Assembly: GCA_963422375.2 (NCBI GenBank)
Contig: OY729428.2
Location: forward strand, 96,001-160,000
Origin: Bryobacterales bacterium
Lineage (GTDB): Bacteria > Acidobacteriota > Terriglobia > Bryobacterales > UBA6623
Reading direction: 5' to 3'
DNA: 64,000 nucleotides
Below are positions 17,801 to 23,800 of this stretch, in pieces. The position numbers are program-made. Each line of letters begins with the position of its first letter. The first letter of the stretch is position 1.

Positions 17801-20800
17801 GCTGAGTCTTGTGGGTAATCAGGTTTCCGTTTCGGACAGGCCAACGCGCCGCTTCCATCCGTTACTCGAAGGCAGCTCGGCCAGCGCGAAGTTCGCAAGG
17901 ATCCCGTCGAGCCGCCCGATCAGATCGCTGGCCAGCGGCAGACGATGGTTGTCCTCGAAGAGCCCCTTCAATGGCTTGAGCTTCTGCTCGCGGAAGAGGC
18001 GCGACTGTCGGCCGAGTTCCAACGGCAACCCCGACAGATAGCTCTCGGAGATGTGCGACAGCCCCGCCACGATCTGCCGCCTCGCCTGCGGTGCCCTTCC
18101 GCCCTCGTCGATGTGTGGTTTGCTCTGGATCGCTTCCGCCATCGGCAGTGCGCTGCCGGTGTCGCGAAGCACTTCCAGCGCGTGCGTCCAGCGAGGCAGC
18201 TCGAGGAGCGGTCGCAGGTCGAGGAATGGACTGGTACCGTCGGGGCCTTGGCCAAGCAGACCGTAGTACGCTCCCCGCACCCGCGCGCCGCGCAGGGCCG
18301 CGAGGTACTGGACCGCAACATAGGTCAGAAAGGAGTAGTGGCGGAACCCGTGCGTCACGTCCACGGTCAGTTCGGCGTTCGCCGGAATGGCATCAGCGAC
18401 TTTCTGCAGAAAGTCGTCGATGTCGGCTTGGTCGCTACCAGACGGGACGTCGATCCGTTCCGATTCGCACTCTTTGTTGCGATGGTCGAGTTCCTCGACG
18501 AGGATTGGCCAAGTCGCTACGGCTGCCTCGGGGGTGCAGATGGCAACGAGGCGTTCGGGCCTGCTTGCTTCCGGCAGCAACTCAATCAGGGCGACTGGCG
18601 CAAGTGTCGCCAGGAACCGCCGGTGTTCCAATGCGTATATGGTGCGGACCTTGCGTTTCCCGAGCACTGTCAGAAGAACATGCCCGCGACCCGTGCTGTC
18701 AGGATGCGTCGTCATCAGCGATCCATCGGTCGGCACAGCCCGTAGCCCCGAAACCGTCCGGCTCCGACCAGCACCGGCCCGGTAACCGGCAGATCGAAAA
18801 CGATCACCGCGTGGGCATGACTCTGCCGCCCGCCGTCGCGCTTGCGCATGAGCCGGGGGAAATCCCGTGCATGGGGAACGCCTTCGGCCAAGGACACCGG
18901 GTGCAACAGCACCTCGCGTGGGCGCGGGAGCCCGATGTGTTTGCACGCGTCCTTGACGCTCTCGGCCGCACGTTCCCAACGATCGCCCCCGTCGAAGTGC
19001 CGGTTCAGCACCACCGGAGTCACGCTCACCCAAGTGCGCGAGGCTGCGGTCCAGGTGCGCGGAGCGAGGTTGACCGGTGGGCGCTCGCGGATGTCGAGCG
19101 CTGCCGTGCACTCGAGCCACTCCCCGTCGAACAGGCGGTGTTCGCGGGGGAGACCAGTGTCAATGGCATGCAGAATGGGCCCGAGGACACGACCCGCTTC
19201 GCCGGGCGCCAGCGCGCGCGGCAGGCTCATGGCCATGCCAAGGATCCTGCCGTCCGCATGGGGTGCGCCGACGAACGGCAGCGGTGCCAGCGCCAAATGC
19301 GGCTCGGTCGTGGCTCGTCCGTCAGCATCATGGCCGCTAAACCACTCGGGGGGTGGCTGCACCGCGCATTCGCGCATCAGCAGGCCGCGCAGGGCCGCCG
19401 TCAGCTTGAGCGTCGCCGGCAGGGAGGCGCGACTGCCGGTGATGGCGAAGACGACGATGCGCGGGTCGAAGATCGACCGGGGCTCGACTTCCGGCAGAGG
19501 CTCTTGCGGACGTGCATAGCCCTGCCACTTCCTGGGAACCGGCCGCATGGGTGCGCGAGGCGTGCCGTCCGGGAATCGTTCCTCAAGCCGCGCCGTCAGG
19601 TCCTTGATGCGTCGTCTCTGCTCGCGAGGACTTCTTGCGTGACTTTGGCAGCCTCCTTGGCGGACAGCCGCAGCAAGCCGATCTCGTATGGTGTCAACAT
19701 CCGGGGAGCGGGTGAGGTACCGAGCCTCCGATTGAGTAAGGCAATCGAAGGCGTGGCCGAACTGCTCGCTCCACCTGTTTTCGAGTTCCGGGCCGTGCTT
19801 TTCTCTGAGTTCATGGATTTGCTCCTGTGTCGGGTTCAATTTCGCGGAATAGGGCTTTCCCGTCAAACCGATCGCGCCAATTACCGTACCACCCTTACTC
19901 TCAACCCAACCGCGCAGATTCGCCAGCGTGCGGCCCTGCCCGATGAAGTCGTCCACCAGCAGGCACTCGCGGCCCGACAGCACCTTGCCATCGAATGCAG
20001 CTTGCCGGCCCAGCCGACCGTAGCCATCGGCGCCGGTGTGGCCAACAATGTTCGTCTGGACGATGTCGGTATCGAACGGAATCGCGAAACGCTCGCTGAT
20101 CAGTTGGGCCAGCGCGGCCGGGATCGCATTGAATCCCTCGCGTTCGTAGGCATGCGCGCTGACGAGTAACGGCTGGCCGCCCTCCCTCCCGTCGAACAGC
20201 AAGCGAACCTTGGCCAGACCCGCCTCGTCTACCAACGCGTCAACGAGCCGGGCGGCGGCGGCGGCGGAACCCGACTTCGCGGCTGCGTATTCAGAATGAG
20301 CCTTGGTTTCTCGCTCGGGAGCCAAAAGAACGGCATCGGGGAAGTCTCTCCAAGGCACTCTTGGCGGTTGCTTCATTGCTTTCAACGCGGTTTTCGCCCG
20401 ATCAATCTCGTCGCTCAGGTCATGGTAAGCAATCCAGGAGTCGCGATTGGCCAACTCCGCGAGGCGAACGAGGCGGTTGGCGGAGGGCACGCGCAGGCGC
20501 AGGTCCGCGAGGCCTTCCGTCGGCACCCAGGTCGCCGGGATGTCCGAGCCGTTGTGGATCCACGCCTGCACGAAGGATGCGGGGTGACCGACATGCGTGA
20601 CTTTGGTCGCCAGGTTCATTAGGGCATTGCCATGCCCGTCCAGTGCTTCCGGCCAGATGAGATGCGCGGTGGGATCATGGGGGATGGCCACCGGAAACCG
20701 GCGCCCCCGGTGTCCTGGCAACAGGGCTAGTCCGGCTTTCTGGAGCTTGTCGTGTTTCTTCTTGAAGCCCTTCAGCTTGGAGAGATCCAGGAGCTTAGCT

Positions 20801-23800
20801 GAGCGGCGCCTTTGAGCATCGTTGACGGGCACGTAGCTGACGACGGAAGTGCGTTGGCAGGCGTCGGAAGCTGCGATTGCGGGCGGGTCGAGCCGCTCCA
20901 GCCAACGCAGGGCAGCACCTTCATCCGTGTCTTCGCCGGTCTCGAACCATGCCGCCGCCAAGGCCATGAATACCCGGTCCGGGTGCGGCTGCCACTCAGC
21001 TTGCGTCTTTCGCGCGCCATCGGCGGCAGCCATCGACCATCCGTTCAGGTAGCGGACACCGAGGACGAACATCAACCCGCCTCCGCTCCGCCTCCGCTCG
21101 CCAGATTCTGGCTGCGCCGCACGAGTTGAACCAGTTCCGGGGAGGGGGAAAGTTCGATGACGCCTTCCCAAGGCAATCCGGCCTTCCTTGCCGCCTGGAT
21201 CGCTGCGGTCAACATGTCCAGCGCGGTATCCGCATCAAGCGCGAACTCCGCCGGTGCTTCTCCCGGCCGGTCGAGAAGCTGCCAGGCCGACGGTCCTTCC
21301 GCGAACAGGTGGCAACGAGAGCGAAGGTCCACATCCTCGCGGGCCAGCGTCCCTGCCGTGAGTCCCAATGCAGCGAGCACGGTGCGGGCGGCGATGTCTA
21401 CCTCGGAGTTTGCGGCACCATCAAGCGGGAATCGCAGACGTCGCAACACAGCGAGCGACAGCGTGGATGTCTGGACGGCTCGCGATATGGTGAACCCACC
21501 GCGAATGCGAGGTCGAACCTTTACCTCCTGGCCACGTTCGTCGATTCTGGTCTCGTATTGGATAAGATTCCTATTGTCTAGCACATACGCAATATCCGGC
21601 GTAACGTTGCCGTGATTCGCCTCCGATGGTCGGCCGGTAGGCCTGTTCCCGCTGCCCAACCTTGAAGCGCTTTCTTCCAGCGTCCAATGTGAAGCGTCCT
21701 GCCGTGCAGGCTCCCGCCTGTACAACTTACCAGCCCCGAGCATGATTTGCGCCGGGTCGATGCGACTCGACGTGTTCACTCCCGGCACTGCGTCGTATCC
21801 GACGATCTCCGACACCAGTGCGCGCTGGAACTTGGCACCTAGGCCGCCACGCGGTCCGGCCGAGTCCCACAAGCCGAACACTAGGGCGGTGGGGCACAGG
21901 CCGAATAACCCGGTAGCGTTGCGGATGTCGGCCGTGTCGAGCACACGGCCGGTATCCGAGTAGCGAAACATCACGCCGTCGAGCAGGCTGTCGCGGAACA
22001 AGGCGTCCGCAATGCGGTGCGGCGCCTCCAGGCTGTTCACCGCGAACTTCTTGGGGAGTTCCTCATCATCGAAGCGTGTCACTAGGAAGGTGAGAGCTAC
22101 CCGGTTCGAGCGGTGCGCTTCGAGCAACGCCAATTCCATCCGGTTGGCCTGTGACTGCACTGAGTCGAGCAGGACGCACTGGCGCACCTCGCCCGTCTTC
22201 GGATCGACTCGTTCCTCCGTGGCGTACTTACCGCCTCCATAGGTCGGCGGAAACACCTTGTCGCCGGGTCCGCCGACCGGCTGATAGCCGGTTACGCATC
22301 GGAACGCCGCCGCCGTGCCGGCCACGGCATCCCGCAAGGTCGTCAGGTCGAGTTCGGTTGTCATGTTGTCTCCTTCTTCGGTCACGCCGGACGGGCGATG
22401 GCGAAATTTCTATACTTGCCGACGGTAATCCGGTGGCTCCGGTATACCTCAACGATGCCCACGGCGTGCAGGGCCGATCGGTCCGGCTCGGATGCTTGGG
22501 TCTTGGCCATCGCGAGCACGGAGCGCACCACGTCGACGCCGAGTGGGCAGTTCCAGAGGGGCCAACTGAACGCGGTGGTTCGTCCGCTCCCCATAAATCC
22601 GGTGGTTTCCAGTCGCTTCCCGTTCGGTGCCGTTGGAAGCAGTGGAAGCGCTTCGACCGCGAGTCGATTCGCCCCGCGCATCGTGGGGACGCCATCGCCG
22701 TCGGACGGATTGGCCCAGCACAGAGCGTGTCACCGATCCTCTTGTGGGTCCCAGCGAAGGCCTAGCTTGCGGTCCGAGTAGGTCCAAGTCTCGAACAATA
22801 ATCGACGCAGGTCGCAGGTGGCCGTCTCCTTTACCAGTTGCTTCATCGTGCCGAGAAAGTGCTGATGTCCGGACCCGCTCATGGTTCGGAGCGCGGTGTC
22901 CTGAATGATCTTGCCGTCGCCGGCCTCCAGCGCATCGCAACCGAATGCCGCCATAAAGTCGGCGTGGACTCGCTCCCGGGGCGAAGCGCAATGTTGGGCT
23001 TTGTGGGCTACTTTACGGAATTGTTTGGGGCTGACAGCTAGGTTCTTGTCGAAATCAAATTCCGGCGTTTCTCGCGCAAGAGCCGATGCGAGCAATTCGA
23101 CCAATTCTTCGGGGGGGATGCCCCGACTGGTCACCAGTTCGGGGGACCAGATCGCGCCGTGCGAGAGCCACTTCATGCGCCAGCCGCAGTACGGCTTGGC
23201 CAACGTTGCCGTTCGCAACGTCCCCACCGCAGCCAGGAATCCCAGCGGATTACTTCCATCCAAGCCGCTCAGCAACAGCCTCGGACTTTCATCCCTCGGC
23301 ATCGTGCGCCTCCTCCCATTCGCTCCGCCGCCAGTCGGCTAGGCGCAGCAGCGCTTCGAGGTACGCCAGCCCCCACCAACCGTAGCGCCGCGTCAGGCGC
23401 CAGTAGCGATCCGCGATACCGGAATTGAGACGTTCGAGGCCGGTCGGGCCGGACCAGCGCAGGCGATAGCCGCGCAGCTCGAACGCGACCTGTGGGGCTG
23501 CCTCGTCGTTCACGACCGGCGCGAATGGGCGGCACTGCCCGTGATGGCTGGCGACGAGGTGCAGCACTAGGTCGCGCAGGTCTTCGTCCCGGGGCAGTAT
23601 CGCCGGCACCGACTCGGCCAGACGCACCGACAGCAACTCATGCCTGCCTCCCTCGGGGTATCCCGCAGACTCGCGGGCACGGCGGCGCGCGGCGCGGGTC
23701 TTCGGCATGTGCGGGAACTTGGCTAAGAGGTCGAGGTCGCTCACCCACCAAGGCGACCCGCCACGCAGCAGGGACTGGAATCGGGAATCGGCCTTCCCGA

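Follow-up and report, generated by a model that had tools for sequence, protein, structure and literature searches.

The Csb2 protein encoded at a type I-G CRISPR locus of a Bryobacterales genome contains, as a genuine in-frame fusion, an inserted domain that structural modeling identifies as a type I phosphoribosyltransferase (PRTase; PF00156 fold). Sequence comparison suggests that the insert is best explained as a whole stand-alone PRTase gene of a plasmid and phage clade, captured into the tip of a Csb2 hairpin in the NF049934 Cas8g lineage. We tentatively propose, at a likelihood somewhat short of even, that it is a conditional toxin tethered to Cascade that backs up Cas3. The fused gene and its neighbors lie in a 64-kb window, the whole stretch of DNA that was analyzed, as follows:

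15874..18715, minus strand: CARF-HEPN-CARF gene (Csx1-like, DxTHG), directly downstream of csb2; PADLOC PDLC01840 on both halves.
18715..21072, minus strand: csb2-PRTase fusion gene, 785 aa, comprising a Cas5-like half, helical stalk, predicted PRTase, stalk, Cas5 tail with linker, and Cas6-like half.
18718..19473, minus strand: Cas6-like C-terminal half, aa 534-785, with invariant H752/H754; TIGR02165 at aa 499-783 and a Foldseek match to type I-B Cascade chain 8fcj_B.
19558..19662, minus strand: return stalk helix, aa 471-505 (predicted helix 482-499).
19663..20364, minus strand: predicted type I PRTase domain of the KfrC-N/MuF/polyvalent clade, aa 237-470; PRPP loop at aa 373-382.
20365..20457, minus strand: first stalk helix, aa 206-236 (predicted helix 211-232).
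20458..21072, minus strand: Cas5-like N-terminal part, aa 1-205; Pfam PF09609 at aa 17-204 and AF2 secondary structure.
21072..22385, minus strand: cas7g (Csb1), open frame; PF09617, TIGR02570.
22382..23302, minus strand: small cas8g (NF049934 family), with an in-frame stop at 22730-22732.
23289..26419, minus strand: cas3g, broken, with an IS-cut start, an in-frame stop at 24725-24727 and a frameshift near 24320.
26422..27355 (far end not mapped), minus strand: IS1595-family element at the cas3 start.

The survey's finding of a 785-aa Csb2 with an inserted PRTase holds, as a single open frame spans 18715-21072 on the minus strand and places VDDFIGQGRT at aa 373-382. The gene shows 0 differences from the short-read contigs of two runs (which may be those of the source study), excluding an assembly artefact as the source of the fusion. 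A profile scan scores the protein at 264 bits against TIGR02165 (cut-off 45), in two separate stretches. The insertion had been placed between the Cas5 and Cas6 parts; its exact site is the tip of a helical hairpin inside the Cas5-like half, at that half's C-terminal end and upstream of a conserved RP..W.GY motif. Unfused relatives have this hairpin too, with a tip 68-103 aa long in 21 proteins, and the hairpin-plus-insert segment measures 324-329 aa in 20/20 measurable fusions. Met233 is present in 111/120 homologues, and its absence from several intact fusions disfavors an internal start there; we read it as the former start codon of the captured gene. H752 and H754 of the Cas6-like half are invariant in 120/120 homologues, and in Thioalkalivibrio sulfidiphilus Csb2 the catalytic histidine of this half is H503 (PMC9638904). 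Csb2 is unresolved in the published I-G structure, and our full-length model of the fusion (pTM 0.42) does not give the relative placement of its domains.

The isolated insert is modeled well (pLDDT 93, pTM 0.90), and its best structural matches are PRT-fold proteins, with ComF first for both models (Z 12.1, rmsd 3.1, 158 aligned; next match Z 8.4). The ShosT toxin, earlier given as the top Foldseek match, did not reappear in that position: it ranks 33 of the listed rows with Z 6.2, is outranked by ComF as nearest relative, and is missing from the listed matches to the full-length model. The insert is a PRT domain alone, bordered by the Csb2 stalk helices, and the pyrophosphatase domain of ShosT is absent. 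The Pfam Pribosyltran match is indeed below the curated cut, as had been noted, although a scan of the whole protein gives E 0.0024 (aa 361-407, 17.6 bits vs 26.3) and the earlier value of 4e-4 belongs to another scan; the mobile-element PRTase clade mostly scores under this cut-off as well. A PDB sequence search with the insert returned matches confined to the PRPP loop. This loop is present as DDFxGQGxT in 118/120 homologues, the count first reported, and as DD[FLV][IV]GQGGT in 172/175 full fusions. D374, G378-G380, T382, K266, N315, P318, Q339, H345 and T346 are invariant in 120/120 homologues, and the domain is predicted to bind Mg-PRPP and to be catalytically competent. R353 and R356, kept in 119/120, are candidates for the conserved arginine that this clade is reported to have in common with ComFC-like PRTases (PMC5512222). 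The insert alignment has no conserved cysteine pairs of the kind that form the 4-Cys zinc finger of ComF.

The full fusion architecture is found in 175/176 listed homologue clusters, that is, in at least 175 clusters counted at 90% identity, and down to ~50% identity neither the in-frame fusion nor its junctions change. Among the 120 homologues listed earlier, 119 align over 100% of the protein, the query being one of them and the remaining 118 having 64-76% identity; the last covers 88%, as stated. Across eight informative pairs, dN/dS is 0.14-0.34 for the insert, 0.14-0.34 for Cas5 and 0.17-0.24 for Cas6, indicating purifying selection on the insert comparable to that on the Cas halves. The description of a widespread Cas8g3-type variant stands as to its spread and its tie to the small NF049934 Cas8g, which is found in 7/7 scanned loci with a fused or internally deleted Csb2; "Cas8g3" is that survey's own name for a protein that the profiles call the NF049934 "Cas3-extension family" or PADLOC Cas8g. 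We likewise found no description of a Csb2-PRTase fusion in the literature searched. Fused and unfused Csb2 are interleaved in the tree (8 changes, 6 forced by starred branches), and several unfused proteins of the same lineage sit in complete operons with arrays, which shows that the I-G core does not need the insert. Stand-alone PRTase copies released from the fused clade also exist, some away from cas genes, and others adjoin I-G operons that differ in Cas8g family, three being represented (L005, G453, G258). Among 300 genomes of G477's class there are three matches, one of which is a truncated fusion in G477 itself; a search of genome contigs with a single-protein query gave two loci. Viral contigs yielded nine loci, and the eight that were re-scanned showed a PRTase match only and no Cas protein.

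The locus in the Bryobacterales genome is broken, as first reported, with cas3 and cas8g both disrupted, and 0/10 congeners with a PRTase match hold an intact fusion. This copy alone has Arg381, the R in GQGRT; the position is Gly in 119/120 homologues. Because of these broken genes and the Arg at an otherwise invariant PRPP-loop glycine, this copy is probably inactive. The adjacent CARF-HEPN-CARF gene is split by an IS1595 element (~16779-17825). It was considered as a dedicated partner and rejected, since it is not conserved beside other fusions, has an intact paralogue on another contig, and shares the genome with a type III-B locus. There is no CRISPR array within the window, and one array lies on another contig of the genome.

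Intact operons with cas3g, cas8g, cas7g and fused csb2 occur elsewhere (G148, G073, G410, G411, L004, L021). The DEAH, motif VI and HD motifs of Cas3 are present in 6/6 of these, so that the insert adds to Cas3 and does not substitute for it; the check covers these motifs only, as our own Walker A pattern matched 0/6 Cas3 proteins. In the single-contig genome G148, no Csb2 other than the fused one was found, alongside one Cas7g and one Cas1, and the array beside the fused gene has 34 identical repeats and 33 unique spacers, none of which matched any of 50,697 phage records. G073, G410 and G411 have I-G-type repeats away from the fusion locus, and an unfused Csb2 is also present in each. Among the flanking genes scanned, the fusions share no antitoxin or effector gene; DprA is absent from them, with matches in five genomes far from the fusions.

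The closest kin of the insert, as judged by sequence, is a mobile-element clade made up of the KfrC N-domain, phage MuF fusions and polyvalent proteins. RP4 KfrC matches at 37% identity over 240 aa (E 2e-45), the insert matches 169 plasmid records, and in a midpoint-rooted tree without KfrC it is nested among MuF and polyvalent relatives. Many proteins of 2000-5000 aa are among the best 150 of 2099 matches, and of 30 relatives scanned, 12 contain a MuF domain and seven contain LPD domains. This is the clade that is described, and called enigmatic, in PMC5512222. Plasmids and islands carry stand-alone genes of the clade, and the neighbors scanned include no conserved partner, which argues against a strong constitutive toxin. 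Overproduction of RA3 KfrC, which is linked to the insert via RP4 only (RP4-RA3 68% per PMC8124265), is reported to slow growth and condense nucleoids, effects abolished by a DDT-to-AAA change; under tacp, cloning succeeded for the full protein but not for its PRT domain by itself (PMC8124265). The same source describes this toxicity as limited to overproduction and host-dependent, with a native role in plasmid stability and transfer control. The survey had missed this source family, which offers better, experimental support for toxicity.

In the conditional toxin that we propose, the PRTase would be kept quiet by the clamping of both ends in the stalk and by the low copy number of Cascade. 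Target binding, or the dismantling of Cascade by an invader, might then free or reposition it, the trigger being a guess; once released, it could phosphoribosylate some acceptor or drain PRPP, the substrate likewise being a guess, and growth would be arrested, backing up Cas3. Observed parts of this explanation are the architecture, the clade of origin, the selection, the retention of Cas3 and the optional nature of the module; the clamp and trigger remain a proposal, since the full-length model gives no placement for the domains. The nucleotide-pool toxin or sensor put forward in the survey likewise stays a prediction. Frequent loss and decay of the module fit a costly accessory. Counted against a toxin are the non-toxic nature of ComF, described as an ssDNA-handling protein (PMC9005727), the lack of a common antitoxin or effector gene beside the fusions scanned, and the restriction of KfrC toxicity to overproduction.

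An unlikely alternative is that the domain is a ComF-like helper or sensor that binds NMPs with PRPP, ssDNA in the form of the displaced strand or of Cas3 products, or both, and that tunes R-loop formation, priming or the loading of Cas3, or links interference to the metabolic state, without killing. ComF is the clear top fold, ComFC binds ssDNA, PRPP and AMP (PMC9005727), nucleotide production or sensing at DNA entry is proposed in PMC5512222, and the near-constant stalk segment fits a positioning role. However, unfused Csb2 in complete operons dispense with the domain, the ComF zinc finger is missing, and the closer relative KfrC has DD-dependent toxicity (PMC8124265). We regard as improbable a decoy or counter-weapon that competes with, binds or pre-empts PRTases delivered with phage (MuF) or plasmid (KfrC) DNA and so shields Cascade or the cell. 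Invaders do carry the same clade, stand-alone members adjoin I-G operons, and outgroup stand-alone PRTases often lie among defense or toxin-antitoxin genes, but the catalytic-loop residues are conserved more strictly than a pure decoy requires, KfrC dimerizes through its other domain and is mainly monomeric (PMC8124265), and the spacer and target evidence ties none of these systems to PRTase-bearing elements. Least probable is a functionally meaningless passenger, a mobile gene in a tolerant loop kept for a CRISPR-independent activity or spread by recombination, for although the variable hairpin tip, the interleaved tree, the released copies and the congeners' lack of an intact fusion would suit it, the junctions kept across clusters and the selection on the insert do not.

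Returning to the conditional toxin, its fullest form would be an RNA-guided phosphoribosyltransferase, in which a PRPP-dependent enzyme taken over from invaders is turned on when Cascade recognizes its target or is sabotaged by an invader; we hold this to be rather doubtful. If true, it would be a type I system with a built-in, non-nuclease abortive effector and no second messenger; conceivable acceptors are a free base, a nucleotide and the displaced strand of DNA. Set beside the HNH fusions named in the 2025 classification (PMC12669027), a conserved metabolic-type enzyme carried by Csb2 while Cas3 stays would represent another kind of design. The fusion also offers a way into the role of the Cas5-like half, which the I-G structure paper calls elusive, and into that of the enigmatic PRTase clade (PMC5512222). 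For cargo to be fused to type I-G Cascade, the variable hairpin provides a natural and tolerated position.

Among known systems, Helicobacter pylori ComFC (PDB 7p0h) is the nearest solved fold and has a PRPP loop, but it is only 16% identical, and the fusion lacks its zinc finger and adds a ~60-residue helical tail. ShosT of ShosTA is a "works like" model, being a type I PRTase in anti-phage defense whose toxicity requires the DD motif (PMC11961720, PMC12961424), yet it is 10% identical, and the fusion has neither its N-terminal PPase domain nor an adjacent DprA-like antitoxin. The N-terminal PRT domain of KfrC (RP4/RK2, RA3) resembles the insert over its whole length, including the helical C-terminal extension, at 37-42% identity and has a DD loop; the KfrC tail binds partition and conjugation partners, whereas here the PRTase is fused into a Cascade subunit. 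RP4 KfrC shares 45/66 clade-invariant columns of the fusion and differs at 21/66, and its loop reads DDTLTMGGT rather than DDFxGQGGT, so the fusion's substrate may differ. The MuF and polyvalent PRTases belong to the same clade of mobile fusion modules (40-58% identity), but they are carried by invaders and the fusion PRTase by a host immune complex; the available text of PMC5512222 makes no CRISPR link. Type I-G Csb2 of T. sulfidiphilus (PMC9638904, bioRxiv 10.1101/2022.08.08.503147) has the same Cas5-like and Cas6-like fusion, TIGR02165 match and cas7g/cas8g/cas3g operon, to which our variant adds a 234-aa predicted enzyme domain on a stalk; our variant has the small NF049934 Cas8g where the T. 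sulfidiphilus system has a large Cas8g/Csx17. Finally, I-E2 (Cas5-HNH) and I-F4 (Cas8-HNH) also bear a foreign enzyme domain on a Cascade subunit (PMC12669027), but theirs are nucleases that typically replace Cas3, whereas the add-on to Csb2 is a predicted non-nuclease with Cas3 kept.

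The fused gene and the gene directly behind it are placed as follows:

window 18715-21072, minus strand: csb2 carrying the phosphoribosyltransferase (PRTase) insert, a single 785-aa frame
window 15874-18715, minus strand: CARF-HEPN-CARF gene, broken by a second IS1595

The survey's finding of a fusion is borne out. The Csb2 model TIGR02165 scores 264 bits on the protein, split over two stretches, and short-read contigs from two runs span positions 17797-25853 or more with 0 differences; these runs may belong to the source study, and so support the correctness of the sequence, not its recurrence. 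A third run, from a separate study, covers 19864-20078 at low depth, again with 0 differences. The Pribosyltran match is weak (aa 361-407, E 0.0024, below the cut-off). The locus reads IS1595, cas3, cas8g (family NF049934), cas7g, csb2 and CARF-HEPN-CARF, and is one of three type I-G operons in this genome (the others at L111 and L114), whose Cas8g families are Cas8g2, Cas8g1 and NF049934. No CRISPR array lies within the window; the sole clear array of this genome is on another contig, adjoining a type III-B locus (L113). An intact 591-aa CARF-HEPN-CARF paralogue (L112:10694-12469, minus strand) lies on a different contig (C3) than the type III-B locus (C1).

The survey had placed the insert between the Cas5 and Cas6 halves; the in-frame PRTase stands, but its exact site differs. 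In unfused relatives, a lysine-rich helical hairpin lies between the LRV...RL and RP..W.GY motifs of the Cas5-like half. This motif-to-motif segment measures 68-103 aa in unfused Csb2 (21 of 33 proteins, the other 12 lacking a pattern match) and 324-329 aa in fused Csb2 (20 of 23, the other 3 likewise). The PRTase (aa ~237-470) sits at the hairpin apex, and thus within the final part of the Cas5 half; it does not strictly separate the two halves. In the full-length model (pLDDT 75, pTM 0.42), local confidence is good for the predicted stalk helices at 211-232 and 482-499, but the domain arrangement is not fixed. The insert starts M-K-x-P-P-R-x-x-W, resembling the start of stand-alone genes of its clade, which suggests that a whole gene was captured. 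The hairpin, variable in length, may have a function of its own. Long lysine-rich hairpins with a 103-aa segment occur in the unfused Csb2 of three fetched loci (L016, L022, L030). In-frame deletions remove the entire PRTase at L138:861-2519 (plus strand) and about half of it at L148:9006-10967 (plus strand; genome G409), leaving both Csb2 halves open in each.

Homologue searches with the window protein (best 120 of 920 matches) and with a 50%-identical fusion (best 120 of 945), joined with one further representative, gave at least 176 clusters; all three parts are present in 175, and 172 of these keep the canonical PRPP loop among the matches listed. The cluster lists are score-ranked and give a minimum number of fusions, not their frequency. 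Full fusions occur in 3 of the 401 genomes sampled across the phylum and in 3 of 77 from the family, and the 79 metagenome loci returned comprise 4 full fusions, 32 PRTases without Csb2 parts and 43 unfused Csb2. The survey's reading of a widespread variant, with no description found in the literature searched, is supported; the frequency is low and patchy. Sources named so far are MAGs of Gammaproteobacteria and Gemmatimonadota, with no named isolate among 20 clusters looked up. Conservation of the insert matches that of the Cas6 half: 104 of its 234 columns reach 95% or more, against 104 of 252 in Cas6. In 8 informative pairs of 9, with dS mostly near saturation, dN/dS ranges from 0.14 to 0.34 for the insert and likewise for Cas5, and from 0.17 to 0.24 for Cas6; in the two pairs furthest from saturation the values are 0.20 and 0.25.

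No paper on a Csb2-PRTase fusion was found by searches that reached few subscription papers, bioRxiv supplements or external data files, and the literature search returned 0 papers joining type I-G, Csb2 and phosphoribosyltransferase. Neither PMC12669027 nor PMC10910872 uses "phosphoribosyl", "PRTase" or "Csb2" in its main text, and the text-form supplements of the former lack these terms too, one picture-only file lying outside the search. Supplements of PMC10910872 hold 15 "phosphoribosyl" matches in one file, the 2 shown being unrelated gene annotations, and in bioRxiv 10.1101/270033 the one mention labels neighbours of cysH-like genes in a figure legend, in a type IV-B context. The fusion is a real type I-G variant under selection, in which Csb2 bears a mobile-element PRTase, and apparently an undescribed one.

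When the insert of genome G148 was used as query, 2099 representatives matched at 50% clustering; 30 multi-domain matches scanned comprised 12 MuF, 7 polyvalent-protein LPD, 4 Cas and 7 with the PRT family alone or nothing. The clade is the invasive-element PRTase group described in PMC5512222, where its role is termed enigmatic. Among 169 plasmid records matched, KfrC of IncP-1 plasmids ranks top (42-43%); the window protein shares 37% identity across 240 aa with RP4 KfrC, whose frame follows the kfrC gene annotated on a sister plasmid. A midpoint-rooted FastTree phylogeny of 119 domains places all 22 fused domains in a single branch (SH 99) with 9 stand-alone copies nested within it, which fits a single capture followed by releases. 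These putatively released copies adjoin I-G operons of other Cas8g types in L005, G453 and G258, and do not in G474, G471 and G467. With the insert removed, a tree of 56 Csb2 proteins interleaves fused and unfused forms (8 changes, 6 forced), so the module is optional, either lost repeatedly or swapped by recombination.

PRTases also occur in other settings. At L005:9995-17737 (plus strand), a stand-alone PRTase lies 14 bases ahead of cas3 in a Cas8g2-type operon, whose 721-aa Csb2 has ~230 extra C-terminal residues without a Pfam match. L038:939-2102 (plus strand) encodes a fusion of an MqsA antitoxin domain with a PRTase from the insert's clade, with a WYL gene and a patatin nearby. In L151:7166-12972, a T4SS-type ATPase and ArdC precede a broken PRTase, which is followed by the cas3 of an I-G system of Cas8g1 type; this suggests that the system is on an integrative element.

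As the survey reported, cas3 and cas8g of the window locus are broken: cas3 has lost its start to the IS and carries a stop and a frameshift, and cas8g is interrupted by a stop. Its Csb2 deviates at 7 of 304 strongly conserved columns, against a median of 4; one of these deviations, Arg381 in the PRPP loop, occurs in 1 of 120 homologues. None of 10 congeners having a PRTase match carries an intact fusion, again in line with the survey. The locus is probably decaying; the window copy is a poor specimen, and G148 is the one to study. Complete cas3, cas8g, cas7 and fused csb2 occur at six loci, in two gene orders:

order one: genomes G148 and G073
order two: genomes G410 and G411, fetched loci L004 and L021

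Cas3 retains its DEAH, motif VI and HD motifs in all six. G148, a single contig (99% complete), has one Csb2 (the fused one), one Cas7g and one Cas1, and its array of 34 identical repeats and 33 unique spacers adjoins the fused operon; if the system is active, the fused Csb2 serves as its processing subunit. The L021 locus includes cas1-cas4 and cas2. In G073, G410 and G411, no array adjoins the fused operon and unfused I-G operons coexist, so the large arrays of these genomes cannot be assigned to the fused operon. Whole-genome matches to I-G-type repeats number 571 in G411 and 341 in G073, indicating very large arrays. No flanking gene is shared between the fused loci. Immediately after fused csb2 in G148 (L105:14774-15730, minus strand) lies what is probably a leftover of a type III system, a Cas10/Csm1 fragment linked to a Csm6-type HEPN domain; in G073 (L108:4247-7910, plus strand), there is no gap between fused csb2 and the SNF2 helicase and HTH protein genes behind it. 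G073 also has a second, unfused Csb2 in a 735-aa open frame (C1:429664-431169, plus strand), above the usual length.

The view that MuF C-terminal domains are often toxins, together with the effects of RA3 KfrC and the DD-dependent toxicity of the anti-phage protein ShosT, leads us to favour, tentatively, a PRTase that would be carried on Cascade as a restrained toxin and act as back-up to Cas3. The experiments on the clade that we found in the literature concern KfrC of plasmid RA3 alone (PMC8124265): overproduction slowed growth in E. coli, P. putida and A. tumefaciens, not in C. necator, and condensed nucleoids; a DDT-to-AAA change abolished the growth effect, and the isolated PRT domain was not clonable under tacp. 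ShosT toxicity depends on its DD motif, according to PMC11961720 and PMC12961424. Against a toxin count the native role of KfrC in plasmid maintenance (PMC8124265), the 21 of 66 clade-invariant columns at which RP4 KfrC differs, and the lack of a conserved partner of stand-alone clade members among the neighbours scanned. A ComF-like helper or sensor is rather unlikely; ComFC binds PRPP, AMP and ssDNA, and PMC9005727 does not settle whether it acts as an enzyme. A decoy against invader PRTases seems improbable, and a passenger is the least probable reading.

ShosT, named by the survey as the top Foldseek match, does not keep that place. With the isolated PRTase domain, which gives a well-folded model (pLDDT 93, pTM 0.90), Foldseek ranks H. 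pylori ComF first (E 2e-5) and ShosT 24th; a wide aligner also puts ComF first (rmsd 3.1, 158 aligned) and gives ShosT a Z of 6.2, and ComF is first with the full-length model as well. Among the solved structures compared, the PRT fold closest to the insert is that of H. pylori ComF (Z 12.1).
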